Shown: positions 1,543-39,308, counted from the stretch's first letter. The stretch: DNA of 64,000 nucleotides from Candidatus Aminicenantes bacterium (GCA_963813235.1 CAWEYF010000017.1:30090-94089); one strand, 5' to 3'. Program-made: numbers and translations. The notes: generated by a model not told the origin, from the sequence alone.

Positions 1543-1593
1543 TAAGCACCGCTATCTCCGTTTTCGAGGATTCTTTTCTTTCTAGATTCGCGA

Positions 1594-3849: not shown

Positions 3850-3927
3850 TAAGCAAGGGGCCAGTCAATGGGAGGCCGATATGCCTCGCCAGTTATCAGA
3901 CAATTTCGGGGACCCAATCTCACGCTA

Positions 3928-4117
3928 ATTCGCCCTCCGGCGTTCCGCAGCATCGGGCAGCTCCGGCCCAGGCGTCTCCCCCGGCCGCAACTTTGGGCCC
4001 TTTCCTTTATGTGTAGATTGGCCATATTGTTCTTTGGGCTATAAGCCGCCAGAGCCGGAGACCAGAGTGCTTGAAAAACTCACGTCATGTCTGGACCATT
4101 TTTCAGGAATGAGGTCC
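3928..4117 (+). repeat. island repeat unit (IRU) copy 1, ending in the 45-bp element
   Basis: Head cgccctccggcg...gggcag...ctcccc...ggccgca, middle agattggcc..ctttgggctataagcc, tail 4073-4117 gaaaaactcacgtcatgtctggaccatttttcaggaatgaggtcc. Aligns to the other IRU copies. Confidence 0.75.
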
Positions 4118-4145
4118 ACCGTGCCGCCCGGCCGGAGGGACGGTT

Positions 4146-4221
4146 CCGCTATGGTGAGGAGGGTGAATTCAGCGCCGAGGCCGGGAATTCGTCGCGGCGC
4201 GGAAATAGGGAACTCTTATCC
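4146..4221 (+). promoter_or_regulatory. promoter-leader (PL) module, leader-only copy
   Basis: ggtgaggagggtgaattcagcgccgaggccgggaattcgtcgcggcgcggaaatagggaactcttatcc aligns to the leaders at 7683-7757, 6733-6809(-), 9385-9429(-) and 12967-13043(-). Confidence 0.6.
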
Positions 4222-4246
4222 TTTAAAGAGCATCCTTTTGTTATTG

Positions 4247-4276
4247 TTGACACTTAGTTTCGCCGACCTTTATACT
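4247..4276 (+). promoter_or_regulatory. candidate sigma70 promoter (TTGACA-N18-TATACT)
   Basis: Hexamers at 4247-4252 and 4271-4276, upstream of the amidohydrolase gene. Confidence 0.5.
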
Positions 4277-4476
4277 CTAGAAAGGAAATCTAAAAATTAG
4301 GGACAGCCGCATCCCATTCTTTCATTCAAGCAATAAAGGAGGCTCCGCTTGGCGAAAAAACTCTTTTGGCCGGTTCTCCCGTGCTTGCCCATCGTCGGCA
4401 ATTCTTCCGCCGATGCAAGAACGCTTTGGAATTCCTCGAGAATTTCCCCAAAAATAAATAAAAAGGAGAAAAGACC

Positions 4477-5832
4477 GTGAGGAAAACCTGCCTGTTAAGG
4501 AATCTGACCGGATGTTTGGCCATCATTCTCTTGCTCTCGGGTGCGTCCGGGCAGGTGACGGCCATCAAGGCCGGCCGATTGGCTGATCCCGTCACGGGCA
4601 CGGTCCAGTCCGGGGTCATCATCCTGATCGAAGGCTCAAAAATAAAAGCCGTCGGCCAGGATCTTAAGATCCCTAAGGAAGCATCGATCATCGACCTCTC
4701 GGACAAAACTGTCTTGCCCGGTCTCATAGACAGTCATACTCATTTGTGCAACAGGTTCGACGCTAAAGGAGATGTGGGCGCCGCTTTGTTATTGTATAGC
4801 CTGTCCGTATCGACAGCCGACCGCGCCATGCATGGAGCCGCGAACGCCAAGGCCATGCTTGAATCCGGCTTTACCTGCGCGCGGGACATGGGAAACGCCG
4901 GTAATTACGCCGACGTGGCGCTTCGCCGGGCTATCAATGAAGGCGCCGTTCCCGGGCCGAAACTGTTCGTTTCAGGCAAGATCATCGCCCCTTTCGGCGG
5001 CCAGTTCTTTCTGGGTCCGGAATTCCCCGAGGTCGGCAAACAGGATTATATATATGCCGATACCCGCGATGAACTCCTGAAAGGCATCCGTCAGAACATC
5101 CATTTTGGATCGGACTGGATCAAGATCGTTGTCGATGACTACCGCTATATTTATTCGGCCGACGAAATCCGGTTCGTGGTCGAAGAGGCCGCCATGGCGG
5201 GATTGAAGGTGGCCGCCCACTGCGTCACGGAAAAAGGGGCGCGTCATGCCGCCGAAGCCGGCGTGGCCTCGATCGAACACGGGTTCGACATGAGCGATGA
5301 AGCCCTCGAGCTCGCGAAGAAAAATGGCGTCGTGCTCGTCGCCACGGAACTGACCCCGCTGATCATGGACGAATACCGTTTTTTCACCCAGACGCACGCC
5401 GGGATTATCGACCGGCTGAAGCGGGCTCACCGTATCGGTGTTCCGCTGGCCTTCGGCTCGGATATCATCGCCAATATCCCCGGACACAACTGGGGCAGCG
5501 CGTCGCTTTCCTCTCTGGAGACTTGGGCAGAGGCGGGCATTCCTGCCCTTGATATATTGCGGGCGATCACCATCAACGGCGCACGCCTGCTCGGGATCGA
5601 GAAGGAGCGGGGTCTTATCAAAGAAGGGATGGCCGCCGATATCATCGCGACGTCCGATAATCCTTTTGACAACATCCGCTCGCTTCAACACGTCCAATTC
5701 GTGATGAAAGACGGCAGCGTCTTTAGCCTGCCAAATAAAGGAGAACGATCGGTAGAAAAACGGTGTCAAGAGGGGCTCGGGGGTTCCGGGTTTTCAACGG
5801 CTAAAGCTGAGCTCGGTTGGCGAGTCAATTGA
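4477..5832 (+). CDS. secreted metal-dependent amidohydrolase family protein
   Basis: GTG start after AAAGGAGAA, followed by a signal peptide. Motifs LIDSHTHL, AAHC, IEHG and FGSD are typical of the amidohydrolase superfamily. The 3' tail runs into the island-arm repeat, so the true stop region is uncertain. Confidence 0.85.
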   Translation: MRKTCLLRNLTGCLAIILLLSGASGQVTAIKAGRLADPVTGTVQSGVIILIEGSKIKAVGQDLKIPKEASIIDLSDKTVLPGLIDSHTHLCNRFDAKGDVGAALLLYSLSVSTADRAMHGAANAKAMLESGFTCARDMGNAGNYADVALRRAINEGAVPGPKLFVSGKIIAPFGGQFFLGPEFPEVGKQDYIYADTRDELLKGIRQNIHFGSDWIKIVVDDYRYIYSADEIRFVVEEAAMAGLKVAAHCVTEKGARHAAEAGVASIEHGFDMSDEALELAKKNGVVLVATELTPLIMDEYRFFTQTHAGIIDRLKRAHRIGVPLAFGSDIIANIPGHNWGSASLSSLETWAEAGIPALDILRAITINGARLLGIEKERGLIKEGMAADIIATSDNPFDNIRSLQHVQFVMKDGSVFSLPNKGERSVEKRCQEGLGGSGFSTAKAELGWRVN

Positions 5833-5850
5833 ATGGACAGACTTATCCCG
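5772..5850 (+). repeat. island arm repeat (P'-arm copy), homologous to 21066-21146
   Basis: ggggctcgggggttccgggttttcaacggctaaagctgagctcggttggcgag... aligns to ggggtctcgggtgttccgggttttcaaaggccaaagctgaaatcagttggcgag... located next to the intact tRNA. Confidence 0.75.
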
Positions 5851-5851
5851 C

Positions 5852-5977
5852 CCTCCGGCCTTTTGATCCGAAGTTCCAGAATGTCCTTCTTTTTATTGGA
5901 TGAGACTAATCGGGAAGCCGCTTCGATTCGCCAGAAAACTCACATGATGTCCGGACCATTTTTAAGGGATGAGGTCC
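5852..5977 (+). repeat. degenerate tRNA-Arg core fragment plus P-arm copy 2 (internal island junction)
   Basis: cctccggccttttgatccgaagt resembles tRNA 3'-half positions. It is followed by about 100 nt homologous to 1644-1742, including the 45-bp element at 5934-5977. Confidence 0.75.
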
Positions 5978-6083
5978 GCCAAATCTTTGCTTCCCCGCTG
6001 TACCCCTTAGGGCGAATACTATCCTGCCCTTAGCTGGACGAGCCATTCGATTGTCTTGGCCGAGGCCTGGACGCAGGCGCAGG

Positions 6084-6719
6084 CTACTTAAGCTCTGGGA
6101 TCCGACGGGTCAGTTCCGCCCAGTCGTTTCCAATAGCCGCCTGGATAAGCTTGATTGCTCCCGCGAAGGCAGGCTCGGGCAAAGCCTGCCGCCAAATCCT
6201 AGTCATGTTCTCCCGATCGTTATGCCCTATGAGCGGATAAAGCCAGTTGACGACGTCGGGGAAGCGATTCTGGGGAATTTTCTGGGCCATCTTCCCCATG
6301 ATAGCCCCCTGGTTCGGAAGCGACACCCTTTCATTAAATATTCGATAAAGATGTGCTTCTTCCTTATTCAGGTGAATGCCCAAGTGGAAGTTAAAGGCCG
6401 CCGTCGATCGCGTTGTTGCTATGGGATCAGACTCCGCGACGGCCTTGTGGAGCGACTCGAACAATGAATCGAGACCACGATGGTCCCGCTCATACGCTTC
6501 GGCCATGAGCGGGGCAACGCTTTCAAGTGTCGGGAATACAAACTCCTCCTCTCCATTTGCGTGCCAGACAAGGATCTCGTTAAAGAAGAAATGACGATCC
6601 AAGACCAAGCCTAAGCCGGCGCGTCCGCGAGCCGCTTCATAGGCGGACGCATCCATCGCGGCCATGTCTTTGCGGAACGCGTTATGAATCGCCCGAATGG
6701 CATCAAGCGGAACGGTCAT
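6084..6719 (-). CDS. hemerythrin-like (HHE cation-binding) domain protein
   Basis: GAGGAG RBS. His/Glu spacing (IHNAFRKD, WHANGEEEF, HLNKEEAHLY) is characteristic of hemerythrin-like domains. Confidence 0.7.
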   Translation of the reverse strand: MTVPLDAIRAIHNAFRKDMAAMDASAYEAARGRAGLGLVLDRHFFFNEILVWHANGEEEFVFPTLESVAPLMAEAYERDHRGLDSLFESLHKAVAESDPIATTRSTAAFNFHLGIHLNKEEAHLYRIFNERVSLPNQGAIMGKMAQKIPQNRFPDVVNWLYPLIGHNDRENMTRIWRQALPEPAFAGAIKLIQAAIGNDWAELTRRIPELK

Positions 6720-6732
6720 GTTTTTCTCCTCA

Positions 6733-6841
6733 AAGATAAGAATCTACTTTCCCGCGGGATGGCGAATGCCCGCTCCTGCCGATGAATCTCCCCTCCTAAC
6801 CACGCCGGGACTATATCGCCGGCGGAGCGACGATGTCAATT
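6733..6841 (-). promoter_or_regulatory. PL module: sigma70 promoter (TTGACA-N18-TATAGT) plus conserved leader
   Basis: On the minus strand, -35 lies at 6834-6839 and -10 at 6810-6815. The leader gtggttaggaggggagattcatcggcaggagcgggcattcgccatcccgcgggaaagtagattcttatc runs into the RBS of the hemerythrin-like gene. Confidence 0.65.
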
Positions 6842-6947
6842 GCCGCGAAGAACGACTAAGCCTCCGTCCCCCAGAGACAGCACCATCTAGGACTGGAAAT
6901 TGCCCTATAAGCAAGGCGTTAGCGCTGAGATTAGCCCCTCCGCCTCG

Positions 6948-7439
6948 TTACTGTGCCCCATGCTGCTTGAGAAGCTCGACTACGTCCTTCTTGCCCTTCT
7001 CAACGGCCAAGTCCAACGGTGTCTTTCCTGTAGAGTTCCGGGCATTCACATCTGCACCTTTGACAATCAACAGCTCGGTCACGTCCTTATGGCCCAAAAT
7101 AGCGGCAACGTGCAGTGGCGTCGTCGTTCCGAGCTTGGCGTTCACATCCGCTCCTTTGACGATCAGGAGTTCGGCCATAACCTTGTTACCAGTAACGGCG
7201 GCATTGAATAGTGGCGTCGCACCCTTGCCAGTCTTGCCGTTCACGTCCGCTCCTTTGGCGATCAGCAGCTCGGCCACGTCCTGTGGCCCCAAAGGGCGGC
7301 CGAACTCAGCGGCGTCAAGCCTTCTTTATCCTTAGTGTTCACGTTCGCGCCTTTCTGTAAGTACCTAATCACGTCGGCAAGCTTGCCCGCTCTTACTGCC
7401 TCGAATAGATTGCCTTCCTTGCTCATAAATATTCCCATT
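6948..7439 (-). pseudogene. ankyrin-repeat protein, one frameshift (about 7290-7296)
   Basis: ORFs 7262..7465 and 6948..7292 both encode ANK repeats (GADVN.., TPLH.AA..GH). Reading ...LTPLSSAALWGH then QDVAELLIAKGADVN requires a 1-nt correction at cacag. The start ATG at 7439 follows GGAG. Confidence 0.75.
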
Positions 7440-7491
7440 CCTGCTCCTCTCAACATATATGCCAAAGATATTTATTGGAGTCAAATGAGAA

Positions 7492-7649
7492 TTTCCCCGC
7501 CCCACCTCTGTCCCCATAACTGAGGCCTGCTTCGCCCTCGGGCGTCCCGCAGCATCGGGGAGCTCCGGCCCAGGCCATTTCCCCTTGCCTCAACTCTCGG
7601 CCCTAGGAAGTGCGATCTTAGAGGAGCTGAGACCAAGCTGCTTATAGCG
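7492..7649 (+). repeat. IRU copy 2
   Basis: Contains the outer helix TGAGGC (7521-7526) / GCCTCA (7587-7592), the hairpin cgcc-ctcg-ggcg (7533-7544) and GGGGAG (7557-7562) / TTCCCC (7579-7584). Confidence 0.75.
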
Positions 7650-7757
7650 CCGATTGACATGGCCGCGTATCGGCCATATACTTCCAGCGGAGTTAGAGGA
7701 GGGAATTATTGTCCGGAGCGGGAATTCGTATTGTCGCCGAAAAGGAAACTCTTATCC
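7650..7757 (+). promoter_or_regulatory. PL module: sigma70 promoter (TTGACA-N17-TATACT) plus conserved leader
   Basis: -35 at 7654-7659 and -10 at 7677-7682, followed by the leader ggagttagaggagggaattattgtccggagcgggaattcgtattgtcgccgaaaaggaaactcttatcc. Lies upstream of the 7890 lipoprotein gene. Confidence 0.65.
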
Positions 7758-7889
7758 ATTAGAAGTATGGGATAGCATAATCTAAGGAACTGAAAGCGAA
7801 ACAACGAGAAGAAAGCTATCAAAATGTAGAGGCCTTCAAGAAAAGGGCGAGCCAATAACAAGTATTAGTCAATGATAAGAGGCAGATAA

Positions 7890-8387
7890 ATGAAAAAGCT
7901 AATTTATCTATTCGTTATAGCAATATTAATAAGCGGGTGTGCGACAATACGAAATTATAATAAGTTAGAACAACCCGAAGGTAGAATTTTGACAGCAAGT
8001 ATTGGAAGCACACTTTTTAGGATGAATAAATCAAGCAACCTGCCAAATGCCTTTGGTAAAGCTGACCTTTTTGGCGGAAAGGTTGACAAAGGTTATACAG
8101 AGCTAAAATTCAAAAGAATTAACGAGAATGGAAACTTAATCTTACAGATTACCGATATTAATAAATCGTCAACGGAAAGTACTATGACTAGATATAAGGC
8201 AAATAAAGTAGATGTTTCATCTAGTAGCACAATAAATATAGGAGAAAATTCAGCCCCCGATCAAACCGATTTTGAATTTGACCCCAAAAAAGAGAAATCT
8301 CTCACTATTGGTGGGGTAGAGATTACTTTTATTGAAGTGACTACTTACAGCGTTAGATATAGGCTGGCTTTTCGTGCAAGCGAGTAG
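7890..8387 (+). CDS. lipoprotein, function unknown (AT-rich cassette)
   Basis: Signal peptide with lipobox LISGC. Composition is markedly AT-richer than the flanks and no domain was recognised. Confidence 0.7.
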   Translation: MKKLIYLFVIAILISGCATIRNYNKLEQPEGRILTASIGSTLFRMNKSSNLPNAFGKADLFGGKVDKGYTELKFKRINENGNLILQITDINKSSTESTMTRYKANKVDVSSSSTINIGENSAPDQTDFEFDPKKEKSLTIGGVEITFIEVTTYSVRYRLAFRASE

Positions 8388-8579
8388 GTAGAACCGGAGT
8401 AAAAAAGTGATCGCGATCGCGCGGGATAACCTTAGCTAGTCCCCAAGAACTGGACAGGGCGATAAGTAGATATTGCACGTGCTATATCTCAAAAGGAGTA
8501 TGGTTTGTCGGAGGTCGAACGAGGAGGGAAGTACATGAACTGGCGCTCCTAGCCCTAGAGGGGCTGTCATTCTTTTGCC

Positions 8580-9380
8580 TTATTTGGATTTTTGTTGCTC
8601 GTCGAGATGCCTTAGATACTTTATAGCCATGTCCCGAGCAATCGTCCGAGCCTCATCAAGCTCTTCAGCAGTAGCATCACGGAGTCTAGCGGCAAACAGT
8701 CCACGATGGCGTCCTTGGTTCAGTGGCAAGTTACATGCCAGATGCCGGAGCCTCCTCCATTGATCGATATGGAGAGCAGCCTTAGCCTTGCCCTGGGATC
8801 CAAATTTTTGCCCCAATGCTTCCCAAACCTCATATAAATATACGAGTTCATTTCCAGGATCTCTTACTGCATCATCAAAACTGTCCAGTATCTTGCGCGC
8901 TGTTGGATCGGTCTCGCAATAACACGCTGAAAGCTCTGCCAGGTTCTTCGCGGCCTCGATCCGATCTCGGCGCGTATCATGGACTACGCCCTTATCATTG
9001 GTGGAAATAATATCCGCATGATCTGTTATCATCATTTGGTACGCGGCGTGCACCACGAGAGTCGTGTCTCTTCTACCATCGGGCCACACACGATTGATGG
9101 CTCCGCCGTGAATATCAAACGCTTGTCGTCGGATCAGTTGCGCCCCAAGAAAATAGTAGTTCAATTCCTTCGTTAGCGAGTCACGAAGGCCTGGTTCCGA
9201 GTCAAATAAATCAGCACTCATGCGGGCAGTGATATGTCCCGCCTCGATTTCGATAAGACAATTCTTGCGCTCCCAGATAATTTTTTCTTCAAAATAGCCT
9301 GGAGGCGCGTATTGCCACTCGATCTCAATCTTTACCTCAGGCGTGTTGGCGGCGATTCGGGTCCTCCTTTTTCCGCGCAA
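8580..9380 (-). CDS. hypothetical protein (start codon unresolved)
   Basis: 266-aa ORF with protein-like composition. Its 5' end overlaps the PL leader. The first in-frame ATG is only at 9221, while an SD-like AAAGGAGGA at 9363-9371 is followed by an in-frame ATC. Confidence 0.55.
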   Translation of the reverse strand: MRGKRRTRIAANTPEVKIEIEWQYAPPGYFEEKIIWERKNCLIEIEAGHITARMSADLFDSEPGLRDSLTKELNYYFLGAQLIRRQAFDIHGGAINRVWPDGRRDTTLVVHAAYQMMITDHADIISTNDKGVVHDTRRDRIEAAKNLAELSACYCETDPTARKILDSFDDAVRDPGNELVYLYEVWEALGQKFGSQGKAKAALHIDQWRRLRHLACNLPLNQGRHRGLFAARLRDATAEELDEARTIARDMAIKYLRHLDEQQKSK

Positions 9381-9384
9381 GCTA

Positions 9385-9461
9385 AATTCCTGCTCCGGCT
9401 AATTAATCTCCCCCCATGAGCATAACGGAAGTATATCGTCGGCCTGTTGTCCCTGTCAATT
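9385..9461 (-). promoter_or_regulatory. PL module: sigma70 promoter (TTGACA-N18-TATACT) plus conserved leader
   Basis: On the minus strand, -35 lies at 9454-9459 and -10 at 9430-9435. The leader is ggggggagattaattagccggagcaggaatttagcttgcgcggaaaaaggagga. Confidence 0.6.
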
Positions 9462-9654
9462 CGCCCTCGGGCGTCGCGTAGATCCGGGGAGCTTCGGCTC
9501 AGCCGTCTCCCCTGGCCTCATGTCTCAGCCCGGCACTCTATGGGTAGAGTAGATTGGCCTCTCGGCTCTCTGGAATACAGGCCTCTTGTGCCAGGGGCTT
9601 TATGGCTTGTACCTCTCACTTCAGAGGTGGTATATTGAGCGCGGGTAGGTCACG
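9462..9654 (+). repeat. IRU copy 3 (with internal candidate promoter TTGTAC-N18-TATATT at 9607-9636)
   Basis: Hairpin cgcc-ctcg-ggcg at 9462-9473, helix GGGGAG (9486-9491) / CTCCCC (9507-9512), GGCCTCA at 9514-9520. The tail is homologous to the other IRU tails. Confidence 0.7.
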
Positions 9655-9707
9655 TCGGGGGCATGCATGCAGCGCAACAAAGAAGACTTCTGTACAAAGG
9701 AGGAAGC

Positions 9708-10325
9708 ATGAAACCAATTCGCATGGTCAGTGTTATGCTCGTTGTCGCTGCGTTGGCTGCCTGTGTGTCTAGGACTAGGTGGGAGTTGGGGTTTAGAGAT
9801 AGTCTGCTTGTGCGGCTCAAATGGATTCCGAATGAGACGGACAATCAACCTTCCGTACTCGACATCACGGGTGGCCTGTTTACAGTCCGTTTCGATCCCG
9901 TGGCGGACAAGCGCAACAAGGGACGACAAATTGGCGAGAATACCGAGGGCAAGAGGCCGAGGCCGATCATTACCAACGACAATGTCGGCACGTTTCTGGA
10001 CAAGTGGATTACGGATAAGATGCATGGCCTCGGGCTGACGATAACACAAGATAACCCCGAGCGCGTCATCACGCTGGAACTAATCGAACTGTGGGCCATC
10101 GAATCGACCAGCTACCATTGTGTGATTCGGGTCAAAGTGCAGGTCCTGACGCCGGAGGGTAAGGAGATTTGGGGCGGAGTTATCGCCGGCATTGGCGAGA
10201 ACTGGGGAAGTTCGCTGGATGAAGTGAACTACCAGGAGACGATCAGCAACGCGATTCTCGACTTGATCTATACACTGGCGAAAGAGCCGAAGTTCAATCT
10301 CGCGCTGAAGAAGCAGCCGTCATGA
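9708..10325 (+). CDS. lipoprotein, function unknown
   Basis: ATG at 9708 after AAAGGAGGAA. Signal peptide with lipobox LAAC. The longer ORF from 9663 lacks an RBS. Confidence 0.7.
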   Translation: MKPIRMVSVMLVVAALAACVSRTRWELGFRDSLLVRLKWIPNETDNQPSVLDITGGLFTVRFDPVADKRNKGRQIGENTEGKRPRPIITNDNVGTFLDKWITDKMHGLGLTITQDNPERVITLELIELWAIESTSYHCVIRVKVQVLTPEGKEIWGGVIAGIGENWGSSLDEVNYQETISNAILDLIYTLAKEPKFNLALKKQPS

Positions 10326-10344
10326 GGCAAGCGCCTGGCTGATC

Positions 10345-10381
10345 TCCCCGCCGTCTCCCCCGGCCTCATATTACTGAGGCC
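10345..10381 (+). repeat. IRU fragment forming hairpin GGCCTCA-tattac-TGAGGCC
   Basis: ccgtctcccccggcctca (IRU tail-like) is juxtaposed with ctgaggcc (IRU head-like). The 7-bp stem is 10362-10368 / 10375-10381, directly after the stop of the 9708 gene. Confidence 0.5.
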
Positions 10382-10505
10382 GCTAACCGCACGGCCGTCC
10401 TTTATGATCCGGGCAACCCAACCGCTGGAATTGGTAGGTCCAAATTCAGGAACTTTACTATCGGCTGTTGCTGCGATATCCTTATTTTAAGGACTTAAGA
10501 TTATT

Positions 10506-11276
10506 ATGATCATTAATCTTATAGCAGGGATATTAACAGGGTTTATTGTTTCCATACCTCCGATGGGACCCACCGCCTTTGCGATTATTTCTAAAGGATT
10601 TAAAAATGAGATAAAGGAGGGTAGAGCCATTGCCTTTGGCGCTGCCTTCATGGATTTCTTTTATTGTCTTATTGCTTTCGTCGGAATGACTTTGATCATT
10701 TCCATCTTTCCTTCAAGGGCGGCTGATTTTTATGCTGAAAATGCTCATTGGATAGAAATAGTACTGACTTTTGCCGGATGCGTCATTGTTATTATTTCCG
10801 GTTTGAAAATTATGAAACTAAAGATTACATACAACAGGCTGGAAACAGAAAATTCTGCCAAGCTTGATTCGGCTCTTGCCAAGGCGGACAAACTGAGAGA
10901 AAAAGCGGAAAGCGTGGCAAGGCATCTCAAGATTCCTGAAATTAAGAAGCCAAGCTTAATTGGATTATTTTTTATGGGCGTGTTGTTATGCATATCTTCG
11001 CTGACTCTGCCGGCTTCTTGGATTGCCATTGTTGGATATTTAAAAGGATACAATATTCTAAATTCCTCTTTTCTTGGCGGACTTTTATTCTCAATAGGAG
11101 CGTTTGCAGGGACCTTAGCGTGGTATTACACCCTATTGAAGCTCATCACAGGTAATAAGAAGCGAATTAATGAGACAACGATAAACAAGCTTAATATATT
11201 TGCGGGGGGAATATTATTATTGCTCGGCGTATTCCTATTTGTAAAAGCCACGATAGCTGTCTTTTCTATCATGTGA
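10506..11276 (+). CDS. integral membrane protein (LysE/RhtB-like topology, tentative; AT-rich cassette)
   Basis: 256 aa with multiple hydrophobic helices and a central hydrophilic loop. The N-terminal pattern loosely resembles LysE-type translocators. Confidence 0.6.
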   Translation: MIINLIAGILTGFIVSIPPMGPTAFAIISKGFKNEIKEGRAIAFGAAFMDFFYCLIAFVGMTLIISIFPSRAADFYAENAHWIEIVLTFAGCVIVIISGLKIMKLKITYNRLETENSAKLDSALAKADKLREKAESVARHLKIPEIKKPSLIGLFFMGVLLCISSLTLPASWIAIVGYLKGYNILNSSFLGGLLFSIGAFAGTLAWYYTLLKLITGNKKRINETTINKLNIFAGGILLLLGVFLFVKATIAVFSIM

Positions 11277-11361
11277 AAAAAATTCTTAGCCTTCAAATAT
11301 GCTTAGTAGAGTTGACCGGCCCCCATTCACGATACCACCTCTAAGAGGAGTACGAGCTCAA

Positions 11362-11769
11362 ATGCACAGGAAAAGATCAGGAAATATCCGCTATGAAGTC
11401 GCGCCCGACCTCCAAGCCCGTTTTGCTGATATCGTCCAGACCCTTGATCTCAGGCACGTCGACTTGGAACGGGTCGTATGCCTGAGGAGTCATGGGTCGT
11501 CGGCGCGAAGAGTCGTGGCCAGATGCCACGGGATGAGCAAGGTGCTACAAGTTGCGTTGAAGACGAAAGCTCTCTATGTTCTGGAATTCATCTCTGAGCG
11601 TTTCGACAAGCTCGGCGAAGAGGGGAAGGAAGAAGTCATCATCCATGAGCTGCTGCACATCCCGAAGAATTTCGGCGGGGGATTCCGGCACCATGACGTC
11701 GTCACCGATAAGAAAATCAAGCTGACGCGCGAGCAGTATCGCCGGGCGAAAGGCCGGGATTCTACTTGA
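11362..11769 (+). CDS. small putative Zn metallopeptidase (HExxH), paralog 1
   Basis: Motif IIHELLHIPKNFGGGFRHH. Clearly homologous along its length to the product of 17840..18229. The start was chosen at the ATG at 11362. Confidence 0.7.
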   Translation: MHRKRSGNIRYEVAPDLQARFADIVQTLDLRHVDLERVVCLRSHGSSARRVVARCHGMSKVLQVALKTKALYVLEFISERFDKLGEEGKEEVIIHELLHIPKNFGGGFRHHDVVTDKKIKLTREQYRRAKGRDST

Positions 11770-11994
11770 GAGCGATAAGCTTCCGGACCTGCCGGACAAC
11801 CTTGCTGACTATGGCCTCGACGATGATCCGCCCCTGCCTGTTGGTGGCCAGCGCAGGGTCAGGACCTGGCGTCATGTGATGGCAAGAGGTCCTGTCTTCG
11901 GTGGACAAAACGCATCTAAAGTATCGGCCGAGGCTGCTCCCATAGGCCTCGAGAAGTCGCCGATTCTTCAGTTACATTTCTGATTGAGGCAACG

Positions 11995-12036
11995 GAGGCC
12001 GGGAATTATAATTGTCGCTGATCAGCTTCGATTTCC
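11995..12036 (+). repeat. orphan fragment of PL leader plus P-arm-like sequence
   Basis: ggaggccgggaattataattgtcgc resembles the leader hairpin. gatcagcttcgatttcc resembles gaagcagcttcgatttgcc of the P arm. No downstream gene lies in this orientation. Confidence 0.45.
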
Positions 12037-12126
12037 TTCGTTTAATGGACTATCTAGCTGGTAGGCACAAAAACGTGGTTCGCCATGAAGGAACCTCGGC
12101 ATGTGCATCCATCTGGGTCGCCTTAT

Positions 12127-12789
12127 TCACTTGTTCTCAAGAGCTTCCCCGATGGTATGGCACGAAACATCGTTTCTTTCGAGTAGAACTCTTTGGAAAT
12201 TTAGAACACGCCCGATCACGTCTTCAGCAGTACTGTCTTGTTGTGTCGCAAGTATTTGTCGTGCCCGTTTTGGTTGCCCTGATCTGCGAAGCAAATCAAC
12301 AAGAATCGCCGTGTCCGCTCGGTCTTGTCCCACCACTTTCTGGTCATGCTGTCGCGCAAGTTCAAGCATGTCCGCTGCCGTTTTTCGGCATGTCGCGGCT
12401 TGCTCAGATTGATCCGTGTCATCGCAAACCCACGCAGCTCGGATTAGGTTCCAAGTGGCATGTGCATAACTCCCTGCCACCCGATCAAGAATTGCCTTAC
12501 ACAAAAACGAATTAGCTAGGGTCGGATACGTAAGATCACTTAACTGAGTCCTGTAATCCGCACTATTAACTAGCTCTTGCTCACCAAGGCGAGACTTGCT
12601 CACATCAGAATTGCAGTAGCCGCAGACGGGACACCGCTGCACCCAGGCGAAGATCGTGGATCGATACATTTCTGGGGGGCGTGTATCCAAGTCTGCTGAT
12701 CCAAAGGTGTTTGTGCTTCCGATCCCCGTATATTTATTCTCTGATCCACAAATACCGCAGCATTTCTTTTCTTCATAATGCGTTGTCAT
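12127..12789 (-). CDS. Zn-ribbon plus helical-repeat protein (DUF2225-like, tentative)
   Basis: The pairs CGICGS...CPVCGYC are followed by a helical C-terminal domain. GAGGAGAGG RBS. Confidence 0.6.
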   Translation of the reverse strand: MTTHYEEKKCCGICGSENKYTGIGSTNTFGSADLDTRPPEMYRSTIFAWVQRCPVCGYCNSDVSKSRLGEQELVNSADYRTQLSDLTYPTLANSFLCKAILDRVAGSYAHATWNLIRAAWVCDDTDQSEQAATCRKTAADMLELARQHDQKVVGQDRADTAILVDLLRRSGQPKRARQILATQQDSTAEDVIGRVLNFQRVLLERNDVSCHTIGEALENK

Positions 12790-12966
12790 GACCTCTCCTC
12801 AGTTGCAAATGATGCGACGGGTTCGGTGTCCGACTGTGACAATATCGCCACTTAGGGCTACCACTGCGTAAGCAGAAAAATGCGCTTCGATGCGCTTGTA
12901 GAGATATCTTTACCGTAGAAACGGCCCAAGTTCTCGCGGGTGCGTCGATCATACCGTGCCACTGAA

Positions 12967-13077
12967 GGATAAGTATTTCCCTTTTCCGCGACGGGACGAA
13001 TTCTCGCTCCGACCGATGAATCTCCCCCCTTAACCACGCTGGTAATATACGTTCGGCCGCTTGGCGATGTCAATTAG
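12967..13077 (-). promoter_or_regulatory. PL module: sigma70 promoter (TTGACA-N18-TATATT) plus conserved leader
   Basis: On the minus strand, -35 lies at 13068-13073 and -10 at 13044-13049. The leader is gtggttaaggggggagattcatcggtcggagcgagaattcgtcccgtcgcggaaaagggaaatacttatcc, about 175 nt upstream of the 12789 start. Confidence 0.65.
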
Positions 13078-13130
13078 CCTAAACTGGGTCAGAATATGAG
13101 GGGAAGCGCTCAGCCCTCCGGAATCCGGGC

Positions 13131-13346
13131 CTTCCCCGCCCCTCTCCCGTCTATCTAAGTGAGGCCTGGTCCGCCCCATAAAGGGCCCTGCAGAACCGTG
13201 GAGCTCCGACCCGGCCGACTCCACCGGCCTCACCTCTCAACCCCGGCAGATGGGCAAATAGCTCTCTAAGGTATAGGCCTCCAGCCCAGGGACCATAAGG
13301 CTTGAAAATCTCAGCTCAGAGGTAATACATTGAACGGGGGTTGGTC
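13131..13346 (+). repeat. IRU copy 4 (with internal candidate promoter TTGAAA-N18-TACATT at 13302-13331)
   Basis: Outer helix GTGAGGCC (13159-13166) / GGCCTCAC (13226-13233). Hairpin GCCC-N6-GGGC at 13173-13186. Helix GTGGAG (13198-13203) / CTCCAC (13219-13224). Confidence 0.75.
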
Positions 13347-13448
13347 ATTACCGCTGACTTTCGACAATTTCTTAACAACTTTTTCACAACTTCCCCCCGG
13401 GACGTATCTAGATTATTGGCAGAGAATAAATGGTAAAGGGGATTTATT

Positions 13449-14018
13449 ATGAGAAAAGCAGGACTTAGCGGGAGAATGGGAAGGGCCGTGTCTGTGTTGC
13501 TGGTTATTTCACTCTTGGGGTTTTCACAAAACCTTATCGCCGGCGAAAGACACGGGGCTATGCTTTCGTTACAGAAGAAGGATGGCCATCAAGAAGACGG
13601 CGAATTGATCGCAGTGAAACCGAGCTCTCTTTTGCTCTTGAATTCGCTCTCAGGAGCAGACGTCTCCATTGAAGTCTCGGACATCAGCGCTATTAGAGTT
13701 GTCAAGAAATCAAGAGCTTGGGCTGGCCTCGGATTCGGCGCGCTGGGAGGGGCAGCGATGGGCGCCATCATAGGTCTTGCCTCCGGGGACGATCCGCAGA
13801 GGGAAGATTTTTGGGGTAATATGTTTAGGTTTTCAGCGGGAGAAAAAGCCCTTTGGACCGGATTTGCTCTCGGGGTTGTCGGAGGGGTGGTCGGATTGAC
13901 AGTAGGCGCATTAGCGGGAACTGATAAAACAATCCAGTTCGAGGGGAAGAATGATATAGAGATTCAACTCGCTTTGGGGAAGCTGAAACAAAAGGCACGC
14001 ATCCCCGACTTCAAATGA
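13449..14018 (+). CDS. secreted/membrane glycine-zipper protein, function unknown
   Basis: Signal peptide, plus two Gly/Ala-rich hydrophobic stretches (GLGFGALGGAAMGAIIGLASG and GFALGVVGGVVGLTVGALAG). Confidence 0.6.
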   Translation: MRKAGLSGRMGRAVSVLLVISLLGFSQNLIAGERHGAMLSLQKKDGHQEDGELIAVKPSSLLLLNSLSGADVSIEVSDISAIRVVKKSRAWAGLGFGALGGAAMGAIIGLASGDDPQREDFWGNMFRFSAGEKALWTGFALGVVGGVVGLTVGALAGTDKTIQFEGKNDIEIQLALGKLKQKARIPDFK

Positions 14019-14023
14019 TCCTT

Positions 14024-14202
14024 TCCTTTAGTGAGGCCTAATCCGCCCTCGGGCGTCCCGCAAATCTGGGTAATTCCGGCCCCGCTGCCTTTCCTGGCTT
14101 CAACTCTCGGCGCTGTCCCGTATGAGCAGATCGGCCAAATGGCTCTTTGGGCTATCGCCCGAGAATCTTCTGCCAGTCCTTTTTTCAGGCAGAAACGTCT
14201 CC
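14024..14202 (+). repeat. IRU copy 5 (tail is a degenerate 45-bp element)
   Basis: GTGAGGCC (14032-14039) / GGCTTCA (14097-14103), hairpin cgcc-ctcg-ggcg at 14045-14056, and the tail gccagtccttttttcaggcagaaacgtctcc. Confidence 0.7.
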
Positions 14203-14203
14203 C

Positions 14204-14659
14204 TTACGCATCTGAATCCTCCTCCCCCGAGTCCCCCTTAGAAGAAGTTCGACGGCTTTTCCAGGAGGTGATCGCCACCACCCAGCAAAGTATCCCGGCC
14301 ATGATAAAGGGAACAAAGGGCTCTGAAGAGGATCTATCAAGGAACGAAGCAATGATAAGCCCCGTCCCGATGACGGGCAGGATTATCGCTTTCGCTTTAT
14401 TCTTAGCCCTCTTACGGCTCTTCTGGTAGGACGCGAAATGCTCGTCACAGAAATAGAACGGATAGACCGGCGAAAGGCCCTTGGTGAAGAAATGAGTCGC
14501 CGCCTTGGCGCACTCCCGGCACTTCACGTTCTGTTCCAGGCAAACGGTCTTTTTGCATTTATAACAATCAGCCAGCAGGTTCCCATCCTTCAGATATCCA
14601 AGGTCGAAATTGAGTCCCTTTCTGCATTTTGGGCAGTAATAAGAGGTCACGGTGGTCAT
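14204..14659 (-). CDS. Zn-ribbon membrane protein, function unknown
   Basis: CPKC...CYKC...CREC cysteine pairs plus two C-terminal TM segments. ATG at 14659 follows GAGGAG, 20 nt after the stop of the upstream ankyrin gene. Confidence 0.6.
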   Translation of the reverse strand: MTTVTSYYCPKCRKGLNFDLGYLKDGNLLADCYKCKKTVCLEQNVKCRECAKAATHFFTKGLSPVYPFYFCDEHFASYQKSRKRAKNKAKAIILPVIGTGLIIASFLDRSSSEPFVPFIMAGILCWVVAITSWKSRRTSSKGDSGEEDSDA

Positions 14660-14679
14660 GTTAAACGCTCCTCGATCGC

Positions 14680-15762
14680 TCAACGCTTAAAATTAGCGTA
14701 GAATCTTCGAGCCGCCTCCAGGGTGCCCTTGCCGAAATGATTCTGGTCTGCATTCAGCCGGACGAGAGCGTCGGGTCCGAGCCCGCAACAGTCCTCGCAT
14801 TTCAACCACGATCCGATCAGATACCCCTCGCCGAAATTGATTCTCTTATTGCAAACGTCGCAACAGGCTTCCGCCCTCTGCCCTTTGGACCACCATTCCC
14901 GGGCCAGCGCCTGCATATAGGTCCTCAAGGCTTCCATATCAGCCAGGGTGACCTCGTCGGAGATCGCGCCCGCCGCCTCCAGGATTTCGACGATATTTGT
15001 GTGACCTGTCCGTCTGGCGACCATGACGGCGGTATCGTGATGCTCGCCCTTTTGGTTAACGGCGGCTCCGCTTCCGATCAGATCTCGCACAATATCGGCA
15101 TGACCATTCGCCGCCGCTTCCATCAAGGCGGTTCTGCCCCGGTATCCTCCGGCATTGATGTCGGCCCCCAGCCCTATGAGAACTTCTACGGCCTTCCTGT
15201 GTCCGTTTTCCGCCGCCCGTGTCAACGCGGACCCATAGGGACCCTGGCCTTCCAGACCAACGCCTGCCGAGGCCAATATCTTTACAGTTGAGGGCCGTCC
15301 GTCCGAGGCGGCCATCCATAGAGCAATCCCACCGTATTTCTTGAGAATCTCCTGCCCGCCGGGGGCTCCGATCAACAGCCTGAGAATCGCCTCATCGCCT
15401 CTTCTTGCTGCTATTTCCAGGGCCGTCCATTCTACAGTGCCGCGGACCTTTTTTGCCCGGAGATCAGCCCCCGACCCGATCAGCAATTTGACAGCCTCGG
15501 CGCTTCCGGACTCGGCGGCCAGAAGGAGTGCGTGTTGGACGTCCCCCCCTTTTTCAATGAACTCCGAAAGCTTATTGATCTGATCCCTGATGATATATTC
15601 GGCATACTTCGCCTTCGAAAGGTCCTCCTCGCTGATTCTCGGGATATCCTTGGCCTTTTCCCGGGCCTCCTGATCTGGAGAAAGGACGGGCTCACCGCAC
15701 TTAAAACAGCTTGAAACGTTGCCGAACAAACCCGCTCCACACTTAGGACATGACGAGGCCAT
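14680..15762 (-). CDS. ankyrin-repeat protein with N-terminal Zn ribbon and C-terminal Cys-rich domain
   Basis: CPKCG..CFKCG at the N-terminus, at least 5 ANK repeats (GADLRAK, GADINAG, GAAVNQK), and a C-terminal CCDVCNK...CEDCCG. Confidence 0.8.
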   Translation of the reverse strand: MASSCPKCGAGLFGNVSSCFKCGEPVLSPDQEAREKAKDIPRISEEDLSKAKYAEYIIRDQINKLSEFIEKGGDVQHALLLAAESGSAEAVKLLIGSGADLRAKKVRGTVEWTALEIAARRGDEAILRLLIGAPGGQEILKKYGGIALWMAASDGRPSTVKILASAGVGLEGQGPYGSALTRAAENGHRKAVEVLIGLGADINAGGYRGRTALMEAAANGHADIVRDLIGSGAAVNQKGEHHDTAVMVARRTGHTNIVEILEAAGAISDEVTLADMEALRTYMQALAREWWSKGQRAEACCDVCNKRINFGEGYLIGSWLKCEDCCGLGPDALVRLNADQNHFGKGTLEAARRFYANFKR

Positions 15763-16003
15763 CTTCCCCTCCCTCGCCGTGACAATAATCCCATTTGTAA
15801 TGGACCCAGCTCATCCGGATTCTCTGGGGCGAATCCTTCACGGGCGGAATAATACCATGTCGTGAATAATTGAGACAATCCTCGTATTGAATCGCGTAGG
15901 AAGGGCGATCTTCGGGATGTTACATATGGGGGAAAAATGGAGTGGCTACCCCCTACGGGCGAAATACTCATAATGGGGAAGCCGAAAGACACGAAATCGC
16001 TCT

Positions 16004-16063
16004 ACGGGCGTCCTGGCTCGAGATAGAGGCATATCGACGCTTTGCCCCGCAAGATTTCGGACC
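16004..16063 (+). repeat. 60-bp repeat (R60) copy 1
   Basis: A 28-nt identical core atagaggcatatcgacgctttgccccgc (16023-16050) is shared with 17011-17038, and the flanks are similar. Confidence 0.7.
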
Positions 16064-16150
16064 TCGCGGTTTAGAGAGGAATGCGTCGCGTATTTTCGAG
16101 GCCTATCGTGGCTGAAAACTATATTGGCAGAGAAGGCATCGAGTTACTAG

Positions 16151-16262
16151 GGCCCCTCTCCCGTCCTTAAAGGTGGAGTTTGGTCCGCCCTCGAGCGTCC
16201 CGCAAGACTGGGGAGCGCAAGTCACGCCAGCCCCTCCCCCCACTGACGTGGGGAAAGATTGT
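16151..16262 (+). repeat. IRU copy 6 (truncated tail)
   Basis: ggcccctctcccgtc head, cgccctcgagcg, helix GGGGAG (16210-16215) / CTCCCC (16234-16239), and a possible outer pairing GTGG (16173-16176) / CCAC (16240-16243). Confidence 0.65.
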
Positions 16263-16275
16263 CTAGCTCGACTTT

Positions 16276-16809
16276 TTACGGGCTCTTTCTAGTCTTAATC
16301 GACTTGCTTTGGAAGTTTGGCATCCATGTCTGGCCGTCAACAGAGAGTTCGCGCTTGTCGATGAAGCTCATGAAATCAGCGGCAAAGACAGCGTTCCCCC
16401 GGATCTTATACTGTTTCTCTCCCAAACGAACGGTACCGGAATATTCCACGGTCGTGCCGTCAATGGTATAGGTAACGGCGTTGACACTCCCGTCGCTGCT
16501 AAAGCCGGTCCAGAAGAACTTTTTGTTCAAGGCGTCATAGCCATCAATCTCATACCAACTGGAGATTCCGTCTTCCCCGCGCCATTCCACAAAGAACCCC
16601 CCCAGGATTGGCCGGACCGTCTGTTTCCCAATATACTTTCCTGCGGGTCCGAGCGGAGTAGCTTGGTTCTCGCCTTCATAGTTCCAGTCCCCAATCCAGA
16701 TATTCAGCTTCATTTGCTCCGGCCCAGGCTTCGGAGCAGCTGTCTGTGCCTGGAGTGCGCCCGCAAAAACCAAGATGACGAGGCCGACCGCAAACCCAAA
16801 GCGTTTCAT
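16276..16809 (-). CDS. secreted protein, function unknown (DUF1579-like, tentative)
   Basis: AAGGAGGGG RBS and a signal peptide ending ALQAQ. The beta-rich sequence has conserved W/G pattern. Confidence 0.65.
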   Translation of the reverse strand: MKRFGFAVGLVILVFAGALQAQTAAPKPGPEQMKLNIWIGDWNYEGENQATPLGPAGKYIGKQTVRPILGGFFVEWRGEDGISSWYEIDGYDALNKKFFWTGFSSDGSVNAVTYTIDGTTVEYSGTVRLGEKQYKIRGNAVFAADFMSFIDKRELSVDGQTWMPNFQSKSIKTRKSP

Positions 16810-16859
16810 AGAACCCCTCCTTTTAAAGCGATGCAGAGACGCGGGGACGGCAAAGAGAG

Positions 16860-16940
16860 ATGTTCGCTAAAGGTTGCCTTCGAATTCCCCCAATCTCTTG
16901 CTGGTCTAATCATAACGCCGCAAAGATATGATGTCAATTC
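16860..16940 (-). promoter_or_regulatory. partial PL module: sigma70 promoter (TTGACA-N17-TATGAT) plus shortened leader
   Basis: On the minus strand, -35 lies at 16932-16937 and -10 at 16909-16914. The leader retains gagattgggggaattcgaagg. Confidence 0.55.
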
Positions 16941-16991
16941 GAAGGGTAGAATAACGCCCCGGGTGAATAAGTAGACTTTTCCCCATGTCAC

Positions 16992-17051
16992 GCGGGCGTC
17001 TTTGAGCGAAATAGAGGCATATCGACGCTTTGCCCCGCGAGGTCTCGGACC
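16992..17051 (+). repeat. 60-bp repeat (R60) copy 2
   Basis: See 16004-16063. The identical core is at 17011-17038. Confidence 0.7.
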
Positions 17052-17390
17052 AAGGGTGTACGGTTTCGGTATTGTGCATCTCCGGGCGCCCTGTTCCACG
17101 CAATCTGTGCGCCGGGGGAGACGGGTAGGGGCCAGGCAAGCGCCAAACGGCGACAGAACTAACGTCTTCCCCATCCGGCGAGGTCTCCATACTTCCCAAT
17201 TGGATTTGTACTGAATCCGATGGCTTTAAAGGAATAGCGTGATGGACCGTGTTCTTCGCCAAGTGCTTGCTAACGCTATCTGATGGCGAACGTTGTATTA
17301 TGCATAAAATAGGAATATAGTCTTAGTGACGGCGCAGGAAAGGAAACGAAGCAGGTCCCCATCAACACTTTTTCCCATCTCTACAAGAAG

Positions 17391-17804
17391 ATGTGCGGTA
17401 CCGCGGACGAGATTCAGCAACTGTGGCCCACCGCATGGAGAGATGGGAATGATTGTTGTGAAAAGGGAAAATACGAAGACGGCTTTTCCAAAGAACTGCA
17501 TCTAGAAGGCTTGAAAATCAAGGAGAGGGAAAAGCTTCTGAACGGGATTTACTGGATCCCGAACGACCTGCAGCTTCGGGCCCGGCCTTTGTTCAGTAAT
17601 ACTTTGAATCGCAATATGACGTTGATTTTAAAAGACCTCCAAGCCTACCTATTGGACAAGAGGATGGCCGGGAAGGTCAAGGAATACTTTACGGGAGATG
17701 AAATCAATTCTGCCCTGACTCTCATGTTCGTCATGAAGGAAAGGTTCAAAAAAAGATGGGATTTTAAACACGAGGGTTGGGTCAAAATCGAATCCCCGGA
17801 TTGA
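17391..17804 (+). CDS. hypothetical protein
   Basis: 137-aa ORF with no clear RBS. A candidate promoter TTGTAT-N17-TATAGT lies about 70-100 nt upstream. No domain was recognised. Confidence 0.35.
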   Translation: MCGTADEIQQLWPTAWRDGNDCCEKGKYEDGFSKELHLEGLKIKEREKLLNGIYWIPNDLQLRARPLFSNTLNRNMTLILKDLQAYLLDKRMAGKVKEYFTGDEINSALTLMFVMKERFKKRWDFKHEGWVKIESPD

Positions 17805-17839
17805 TATAGTTAAGAGCCCGCCCCCCCGACGTGCGCTCG

Positions 17840-18229: not shown

Positions 18230-18469
18230 CAGATTCCTTTTAAATCACGGCGGTACGATATTTCAGGCCCAACGAGGTTGTCAATACGTCTCCGAGGTCG
18301 GTTTTTCCGTCCGCGCCGTTTCAATCGAAGCGCAGGGCATCCACGGGGTTGGTACGGGCGGATCTCAGCGACGCTTTTCCAGACCCTCCCGATGTGCGTG
18401 ACCGCCTCCTTGAAGGGCTTCCCGGCCGGGCCGTCTTATCCGGCCTCAGTCCTTGTAACAGGAAGCGGA

Positions 18470-18727: not shown

Positions 18728-18766
18728 CTTTCTTATAGTCTATCACCGCGAGGCTTAAGATAGCTA

Positions 18767-18856: not shown

Positions 18857-18880
18857 AGAAGGTTGTCGTTTTCCTCGATG

Positions 18881-39298: not shown

Positions 39299-39308
39299 TT
39301 CAAGCGGG

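Follow-up and report, generated by a model that had tools for sequence, protein, structure and literature searches.

A promoter-bearing module in front of unrelated genes of Candidatus Aminicenantes is probably the end of an IS91-family insertion sequence

A stretch of 64,000 nucleotides from a Candidatus Aminicenantes bacterium (GCA_963813235.1 CAWEYF010000017.1:30090-94089), referred to here as the window, contains several copies of a module of ~100-130 nt in which a near-consensus promoter is joined to a conserved leader. Comparison with related sequences suggests that this module is the right-hand (oriIS-side) end of an ISCR-like rolling-circle insertion sequence (IS) of the IS91 family, which is abundant in Aminicenantes and carries an outward promoter; we place the probability of this reading at about 0.8. 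The outward promoter would transcribe any gene lying beyond the end of the element, and the terminal ~75 nt of the IS would become the 5' untranslated region (UTR) of that gene. Fragments that keep the promoter would be retained, or spread, in front of genes, and the leader would be conserved as the DNA end that the transposase recognizes and cleaves, not as a regulatory RNA. In the window, only solo ends of ~100-130 nt would be present, with no transposase. An initial annotation had described the same sequences as a portable promoter fused to a shared cis-regulatory RNA or regulator-binding leader. The portable promoter in front of unrelated genes is borne out across the family (~98 gene families, at least 190 copies). 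The leader appears to be terminal IS91-family sequence, contiguous with transposase remnants in 38 loci, and the circumstance named as speaking against a regulatory leader, namely that it belongs to a decayed repeated element, is in essence what was found.

Copies were collected by scanning a genome collection (30 loci) and metagenomes (at least 120 loci, mostly from one sediment sample series) with a pattern for the leader core, and the family-wide statistics given below rest on the genome and metagenome matches listed, from which ~1 Mb was fetched. Pattern-matching copies number at least 144 (at least 127 of them unique), and a profile search over the fetched ~1 Mb found at least 197. When the sequence upstream of the -35 hexamer is aligned, a long further extension is common to 59 of 109 distinct copies. 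In locus L022, this extension enters the end of an open reading frame (ORF), ...WAEMIRKVYEVDPMVCPKCGGTMKVIAFITEYAVVDRIIDHLKL...EESGEYF and stop, with the peptide motif ...KVYEVDPMxCPKCGGxMKxIAFITE...DRIIDHLKL.... A tblastn search with the 72-residue peptide recovered 47 fetched loci in which its N-terminal side is variably truncated, and in 38 of these the module terminus lies downstream on the same strand. The distance from the last codon to the terminus is 205-229 nt for 28 of the 32 complete peptides (mode 220-223, range 115-331). The longest remnant upstream of a module matches Pfam Y2_Tnp (PF04986) with an E value of 2.3e-13, above the curated cutoff, as well as the C-terminal third of the NCBIfam 'IS91 family transposase' model. 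A database search returned 2,297 relatives, some of them named 'transposase [Candidatus Aminicenantes bacterium]'; no solved structures were found for the transposase. The longest relatives (P0021, P0014 and P0069; 344-349 aa) reach 156-169 bits with NF033538, the NCBIfam equivalog model 'IS91 family transposase', and so pass its curated cutoff of 125 bits. According to precomputed Pfam matches, P0014 and P0069 combine Zn_Tnp_IS91 (PF14319) with Y2_Tnp (PF04986), and P0021 contains the H-x-H stretch NLHVHLHFLV. The P0021 gene (locus L151) is followed by a diverged version of the same layout: the stop codon, ~110 nt, TTGACA-N17-TATCCT and a leader-like stretch ending ...GGAAAAGGAAATTCTTAT, an end also given as ...GGAAAAGGAAATTCTTATTCT.

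These comparisons define the anatomy of a full copy. The transposase gene is followed by ~110 nt, a TTTTCGCG-type box, the outward TTGACA-N18-TAtAnT promoter and ~75 nt of terminal sequence with a subterminal palindrome, which ends ...GGAAAAAGGAAATTCTTAT and is bordered by a semi-conserved CCTT-like tetranucleotide. In a profile of the IS end, 452 positions long, the stop falls at 231 and the -35 hexamer at 340, with the terminus close to position 448. Nine copies (L028, L051, L057, L058, L060, L079, L087, L103 and L139) have a different conserved upstream extension of ~80 nt, ...GCCAAGGCTGAACGCCTGAAGGGCAGACGTCAGGCAGCTTTTCACGAA, with no match to the transposase C-terminus, and possibly represent a second element subfamily.

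Copies of the family are alike at one end and variable at the other. In the 184 copies with a 3' terminus and no interruption by a contig end, the sequence is highly conserved up to ...AAATTCTTAT, partly conserved at the next four positions (C 70%, C 57%, T 77% and T 85%) and then random; the commonest tetranucleotides past ...CTTAT are CCTT, CCCT, ATTT and CTTT. At the 5' side, the same copies form a continuum that reaches from the -35 hexamer itself to >340 nt upstream of it, with 18 starting >340 nt upstream, inside the transposase gene, ~80 at intermediate positions and 70 at 0-25 nt. A constant 3' end combined with variable 5' ends and a fixed distance to the transposase stop argues for a transposon end rather than a gene-specific leader.

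The same geometry bears on a different proposal, in which the module would be a host promoter region that forms a preferred target for IS91-family insertion, the transposase remnants being merely adjacent to it. IS91-family elements do insert beside specific tetranucleotides (PMC13181058). Long copies have a further ...TTTCTTATCC-like motif ~45 nt before the -35, and the IS end in locus L154 directly abuts a separate TTGACA-N17-TATACT promoter. Nevertheless, the stop-to-terminus distance of ~220 nt is constant in dozens of loci with different flanks, and homology between copies stops at the 3' terminus of the module rather than at a putative inner end, which makes this proposal highly improbable. 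A candidate duplication, in which the leader would repeat the segment just past the transposase stop, was rejected because the resemblance between this inner region and the leader is not significant (local alignment score 22 versus 15.8±3.1 for shuffled sequences, p=0.06), a result that also speaks against the insertion-target proposal.

Selection and a miniature element could each account for the excess of copies with a start close upstream of the promoter. Under the second explanation, the ~130-nt units would be a promoter-carrying rolling-circle 'MITE' (miniature inverted-repeat transposable element) derived from an IS91-family end, mobilized in trans by the transposase of the family and actively seeding promoters around the genome. 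The main mode of the 5' boundary (70 of 184 copies), in which all five window copies fall, agrees with such a unit, as does the clustering of several copies in single loci and in the window island, and the last 82 bp of the right end of IS91 are sufficient for transposition (PMC13181058). However, the 5' boundary is not sharp (the five window copies start at profile positions 320, 320, 327, 339 and 344), no conserved terIS-like sequence was found at the left end, and the graded series of longer truncations could just as well reflect decay or deletion. Inverted-repeat complementarity between the flanks is also the same within copies (5.49) as between them (5.50). Given that neither a sharp left boundary nor copy-specific inverted repeats are present, the miniature-element version is not preferred, and we regard it as unlikely. 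For the right-hand-end interpretation, candidate routes by which solo ends could have arisen are deletion of the IS with retention of its promoter, premature termination of rolling-circle transposition and mobilization in trans. A bolder version would have the promoter-plus-end units, as a self-propagating non-autonomous rolling-circle element or a domesticated one maintained by selection, act as a standard 'expression plug' for acquired or rearranged genes across Aminicenantes, the end and its palindrome still being bound by an IS91-family transposase or a derivative of it, which could couple dozens of unrelated genes to transposase activity; this we consider distinctly unlikely. In a related version, the outward promoter would serve the IS by reading across the oriIS-terIS junction of a circular intermediate into the transposase gene.

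Within the window, a promoter scan of positions 3500-21500 detected six sites with 11 of 12 matches to TTGACA-N17/18-TATAAT, which include all five near-consensus promoters of the initial annotation:

6839-6810, minus strand: promoter, 11/12
7654-7682, plus strand: promoter, 11/12
9459-9430, minus strand: promoter, 11/12
13073-13044, minus strand: promoter, 11/12
16937-16909, minus strand: promoter, 11/12
4247-4276, plus strand: promoter, 11/12

A degenerate pattern for the leader core has four matches in the window against none expected, and alignment of the regions shows ~110 nt common to four promoter sites, from AATTGACA through CTTATCC. An nhmmer profile of the module, built from relatives, identifies five copies of ~100-130 nt each, to which a possible degenerate copy may be added:

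13096-12964, minus strand: module copy 1 (nhmmer E 1.8e-34; positions 320-449 of the 452-position IS-end profile)
6863-6732, minus strand: module copy 2 (nhmmer E 4.4e-31; profile positions 320-450)
7635-7760, plus strand: module copy 3 (nhmmer E 9e-21)
9462-9364, minus strand: module copy 4 (nhmmer E 1e-19; profile positions 339-436 only)
4097-4225, plus strand: module copy 5 (nhmmer E 6e-16; decayed promoter)
16880-16940, minus strand: possible degenerate copy (promoter TTGACA-N17-TATGAT, 11/12, plus ~30 nt of resemblance)

Copy 1 has its -35 (TTGACA) at 13073-13068, its -10 (TATATT) at 13049-13044, a predicted transcription start at ~13037 and its terminus, ...CTTAT followed by CCTT, at ~12965; beyond it lie a small ORF (12773-12952) and a DUF2225 zinc-ribbon gene (12127-12789), and the cassette has a 96% identical counterpart in locus L004. 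In copy 2, the -35 at 6839-6834 and the -10 (TATAGT) at 6815-6810 predict a start at ~6803. Its terminus, ...CTTAT followed by CTTT, falls at 6732, and 12 nt further on are the Shine-Dalgarno (SD) sequence and ATG (6719) of a gene (6084-6719) with a Pfam Hemerythrin match; an exact-protein look-up found no identical protein on record. Copy 3 (-35 at 7654-7659, -10 TATACT at 7677-7682, terminus ...CTTAT followed by CCAT at ~7759) has a 1-nt deletion in its leader, and a lipoprotein gene (7890-8387) begins 130 nt beyond it. Copy 4 (-35 at 9459-9454, -10 TATACT at 9435-9430) is shortened on both sides. Copy 3 of a separate repeat family, IRU, starts at 9460 and interrupts the module 2 nt before the -35; the module is also truncated at the 3' side past GGAAAAAGGAG, a stretch that serves as the SD region of an orphan ORF (8580-9380). 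In copy 5, GGTCCA...GGGACGGT stands where TTGACA...TATAGT is expected, with the terminus ...CTTAT followed by CCTT intact; beyond it are the independent promoter at 4247-4276(+), which shows no homology to the leader when aligned, and an amidohydrolase gene (4477-5832).

The initial annotation had thus placed a homologous leader correctly after the promoters at 13073, 6839, 7654 and 9459, and its promoter-less copy at 4146-4221 is real. The CTTATCC end assigned to every module is missing from the truncated copy at 9459, and a fragment proposed at 11995-12019 is undetectable even at E<=10. No leader was recognized after the promoter at 16937: the site matches neither profile even at E<=10, and its resemblance to deletion variants of the module is confined to the promoter and GGGGGAATTCG. 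The site may be a degenerate copy, the resemblance being without statistical support, and is followed by a DUF1579 gene (16276-16809). The deletion variants are natural (L098:298-403, L140:420-527 and L145:41-156), with a leader shorter by ~20 nt; the part lost from L098 and L140 falls between two GGG(A/G)ATTC direct repeats, which fits slippage or recombination between them. As had been reported, each module in the window has the orientation of its adjacent gene and these genes (amidohydrolase, hemerythrin, lipoprotein, orphan ORF, DUF2225 and DUF1579) are unrelated to one another.

The promoter hexamers themselves are conserved. In 99 of 120 unique regions, selected for a -35 with no more than two mismatches and a TAnnnT -10, each position of TTGACA is retained in 93-98 copies, and at the -10 positions left free by the selection (T1, A2 and T6 being fixed) position 3 is T in 80% and position 4 is A in 90%. 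The spacer is 18 nt long in 95 of the 99, with variable letters. Conserved hexamers and a fixed spacer length, coupled with variable spacer letters, point to selection on promoter function. Scored by a crude method, 32 copies have a downstream coding strand that agrees with the promoter and 14 (~30%) have one that opposes it, with 51 unscorable (p=0.011). This co-orientation of 32:14 is a bias rather than a rule and fits what is expected of insertion followed by selection.

Genes beyond the modules have little in common. Downstream ORFs fall into 98 clusters among 126 in the matches listed, and twenty sampled genes, from diverse Pfam families, show no functional theme. They include a TonB-type outer-membrane protein, prolyl oligopeptidase, a radical SAM enzyme, ornithine cyclodeaminase, an AI-2E transporter, a hybrid histidine kinase, a Ser/Thr kinase, type I and type ISP restriction enzymes, a C5 methylase and an M15 peptidase. 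Clustering 1,450 ORFs from ~1 Mb of related loci, a crude procedure without domain scans, revealed no recurrent regulator or recombinase among the largest clusters, which consist of artefacts of module translation and unrelated paralogues. The hemerythrin gene and its module are also found together in another genome, at locus L065, where the homology is limited by the 5' edge of the module and the stop codon of the gene; the L065 leader is far more diverged than its hemerythrin gene, which suggests that module-gene units are reshuffled by other means too.

The claim that the ~70 nt transcribed from each module, whatever their evolutionary origin, form a structured cis-regulatory RNA or are bound by a common regulator that coordinates unrelated genes now appears very unlikely. 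It draws on real features: a core, GGGGAGATTCATCG..CGGAGCGGGAATTC, that is nearly invariant even in copies found by the profile, three RRATTC direct repeats ~20-25 nt apart in the alignment, and start codons that often lie 10-25 nt past the module end, each with its own SD. Yet the distance from module to start codon ranges from about -17 to >700 nt, the 14 of 46 scorable copies that face an opposite-strand gene fit random insertion and selection, the downstream functions lack a common theme, and a more distant IS relative has the promoter and the last ~25 nt of the end without the leader core. Structure predictions were equally negative. The suggested Rfam check found no match to the leader; only tRNA was matched, in the window at the gathering threshold, in the island at E<=5 and in ten related loci. 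The minimum free energy of 117 unique leaders equals that of dinucleotide shuffles (mean z +0.07), the window copies show no unusual stability as single-stranded DNA on either strand (z -0.7 to +0.6), and RNAalifold, given the 117 aligned leaders, predicts two pairs at -0.55 kcal/mol with zero compensatory change.

The hairpin stem on which that claim had been built (GCGGG/CCCGC and its variants, columns 33-37 with 48-52) is not supported by the larger alignment: 60.9% of cells across the 117 members are paired versus 61.2% after shuffling, with no compensatory changes. The search pattern fixed GGAGC, and two of the five 5'-arm positions were therefore invariant by design; the free positions varied, without compensation. 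An alternative register (33-36 with 44-47) does no better than its slid control. A long-range pairing between GGATAGGAG on the 5' side and CTCCTATCC on the 3' side is perfect in some subfamilies, absent in others and not recovered by RNAalifold. A small leaderless peptide beginning with ATG or GTG at the predicted start is ruled out by variation at codon positions 1 and 2, 1-nt indels and an early stop in the copy at 9459. A different, short palindrome is probably maintained. TTCGnn/nnCGGA (columns 40-45 with 50-55), formed by the TTCG of a GAATTCG box and two variable bases ~25-40 nt from the end, is 74.2% paired versus 69.1±0.8% in shuffles, with 41 compensatory cells versus 22.5±3.7, a value reached by none of 500 shuffles and exceeding all slid controls. 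In the window it is found as follows:

12984-12999, minus strand: covarying palindrome of copy 1, TTCGTC-CCGT-CGCGGA (equivalent in copy 2 at 6751-6766)

These compensatory changes could be cited for a regulatory leader, and such modest covariation is also as expected for the subterminal palindrome of an oriIS.

Several observations weigh against identifying the module as a right-hand IS91-family end. No transposase or remnant lies within the window, where element and transposase profiles find nothing beyond the five end copies at profile positions ~320-450, and the assignment rests on homologues elsewhere. In the scanned loci, no intact element with both ends was recovered, terIS was not found and every module-adjacent transposase is truncated; the longest transposase relatives either lack ~55 N-terminal profile positions or are frameshifted. 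The related IS in L154 ends ...ATTATCCTT followed by GGTTC, ~95 nt past the stop, with no internal promoter, and the promoter-bearing segment may consequently have been added in this lineage only. Conservation of the leader core is close to that of the -35 hexamer, more than a passive 5' UTR would need. This conservation would suit a transposase recognition site, and a role as transcribed sequence is also conceivable. We infer that the end is oriIS from its position downstream of the transposase gene only, and firing of the promoter in Aminicenantes is predicted from its sequence.

All module copies of the window lie within a low-GC island at 1592-21279 (GC 0.49-0.55 versus 0.62-0.69 in the core), the borders of which are:

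21203-21279, minus strand: tRNA-Arg(CCG)
1592-1639: 48-nt copy of the 3' end of this tRNA (98% identity)

A third copy of the tRNA end, 60% identical, lies inside the island at 5827-5874, and these copies suggest that integrative elements accreted in tandem. A 43-nt repeat, AAAACTCACATTATGTCTGGACCATTTTTCAGGAATGAGGTCC, occurs six times (1700-1742, 4075-4117, 5935-5977, 18815-18857, 20230-20272 and 20876-20918) near the tRNA-end copies and is present in L049, L065, L109 and L114 too. No integrase or recombinase was found among the island ORFs scanned. The IRU repeats of ~110-150 nt form a separate family with six direct copies:

3895-4045, plus strand: IRU copy 1
7485-7635, plus strand: IRU copy 2
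9445-9595, plus strand: IRU copy 3
13125-13275, plus strand: IRU copy 4
14010-14160, plus strand: IRU copy 5
16140-16290, plus strand: IRU copy 6
10330-10400: partial IRU copy, a right end fused to a left start (GGCCTCAtattaCTGAGGCC)

In an IRU, GTGAGGCC...GGCCTCAC forms the outer stem and CGCCCTCGGGCG the hairpin inside it, a conserved tail of ~60 nt follows, and the single-strand fold is unexceptional (z -1.06). Modules had been described as abutting IRU copies directly. This is the case at 9459/9460 but not at 13073, where ~60-100 nt of other conserved sequence intervene.

The proximity of the two repeats, with several cassettes flanked by IRUs, might suggest an invertible promoter (inverton), or a cassette promoter of the integron type linked to IRU. 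Modules do occur in both orientations between back-to-back genes, and there is a weak inverted similarity at the level of the family between upstream TTTTCGCGG and downstream CGCGGAAAA. This similarity is not copy-specific, as the complementarity values quoted above for the flanks show, and recombinases are lacking among the scanned island ORFs and do not recur in the largest ORF clusters of related loci. Integron attC sites have the consensus RYYYAAC on the 5' side and GTTRRRY on the 3' side, with an IntI integrase nearby. The outer IRU arms have the opposite polarity and no integrase accompanies them among the island ORFs scanned, and IRU was rejected as an attC site. Moreover, homologues of IRU turned up in none but the closest relatives (L004, L065 and L120), whereas the module is family-wide. 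An inverton or cassette promoter is, in our view, barely credible.

Other features of the window were recorded in passing. Segments at 9590-9640 and 13290-13340 (+) are homologous to each other and resemble weaker promoters (TTGTAC/TTGAAA ... TATATT/TACATT); they follow IRU copies 3 and 4 and precede the plus-strand genes 9663-10325 and 13449-14018. An ankyrin-repeat gene at 6948-7465(-) is broken into overlapping ORFs (6948-7292 and 7262-7465) and is probably a frameshifted pseudogene. A 59-nt direct repeat (16005-16063 and 16993-17051, 86% identity) encloses IRU copy 6, the DUF1579 gene and the 16937 promoter. Outside the island, a 1167-aa ORF at 36573-40076(+) has homology to glgC (glucose-1-phosphate adenylyltransferase) at residues ~485-853 only; it is a fusion protein or else an ORF that was called too long in high-GC DNA.

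Amongst the matches listed, the module comes essentially from Candidatus Aminicenantes metagenome-assembled genomes (MAGs) and sediment metagenomes. True copies with the promoter in place account for 23 of the 30 genome-collection loci, all of them from MAGs of Candidatus Aminicenantes or from 'binchicken' MAGs that bear the label Eubacteriales; the remaining seven are chance matches inside coding DNA of other phyla. One Eubacteriales-labelled MAG has 96% DNA identity to window positions 12069-13167, and the glutamine-tRNA ligase (glnS) of the window is 77-81% identical to named Candidatus Aminicenantes/Aminicenantales proteins, which places the window in this lineage. Many module copies are found under the title 'uncultured Eubacteriales bacterium' in CAZLAM01, CAZPEP01 and CAZSMW01 (L003-L006, L015-L018, L025 and L028; binchicken co255), and this label is probably wrong. 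A literature search on promoter repeats of Aminicenantes found no relevant description.

The closest parallel is ISCR1, an IS91-related element with a 232-bp oriIS region that contains two outward promoters and increases downstream expression 13- to 15-fold, a co-oriented gene lying downstream in 84% of copies (PMC6218425). As with its promoters PCR1-1 and PCR1-2 (Lallement et al. 2018, PMC6218425), the outward promoter of the module is located in the ~220-230 nt between the stop codon and the oriIS end, and the predicted module resembles ISCR1 in the variable, mostly co-oriented genes beyond the end and in truncated copies beside unrelated genes. In contrast to the two weak promoters of ISCR1, the module has one near-consensus TTGACA-N18-TAtAnT promoter. 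It also differs in its Aminicenantes host, in its flanking genes (metabolic, envelope and restriction-modification genes, not resistance genes) and in being found mostly as solo end fragments of ~130 nt. The transposases score 69-88 bits against a cutoff of 925 for ISCR clade Ia, although they pass the IS91 model. IS91-family elements have a conserved right end (oriIS) downstream of tnpA, subterminal palindromes and a target tetranucleotide outside the end, with no target duplication (PMC13181058). The element proposed here is like IS91, IS801 and IS1294 (PMC13181058) in combining Y2_Tnp with Zn_Tnp_IS91, in its presumably distinct ends with the conserved one downstream of the transposase gene, in its putative subterminal palindrome and in the semi-conserved tetranucleotide just outside the end. 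That tetranucleotide is CCTT-like, unlike the CTTG/GTTC of IS91, for which a complete internal outward promoter has not been described.

Highly similar promoter sequences before non-homologous genes, both within and between genomes and some of them IS-derived, have also been catalogued as putative mobile promoters (Matus-Garcia, Nijveen & van Passel 2012; PMC3575422). That class is descriptive and has no mechanism, whereas the module has an identified vehicle in the IS91-family end. Correia elements of Neisseria and other promoter-carrying MITEs (cited in PMC3575422) are likewise short dispersed repeats that give strong promoters to their neighbours. Terminal inverted repeats and TA duplications characterize the Correia elements, unlike the module, which would be a rolling-circle IS end and is without supported inverted termini. 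Judged by its sequence, the module is a known kind of mobile promoter, predicted to work like the oriIS/POUT region of ISCR1 and assigned to the IS91 family by its transposase.

What resembled a designed regulatory module would, according to this reading, be the footprint left by the promoter-bearing end of a mobile element. The history of the leader carries a warning, in that compensatory-looking changes in five leaders mimicked a structured RNA and the signal was gone at 117 copies. For Aminicenantes, an abundant but uncultured sediment lineage, the module offers a first concrete candidate for a strong native promoter with a likely transcription start, and the at least 190 sampled insertion footprints could be utilized as markers of genome plasticity. 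It would also provide an environmental, non-clinical case of an ISCR1-type promoter-donating end, which suggests that IS91-like elements have long and generally donated promoters, a behaviour not peculiar to resistance islands.

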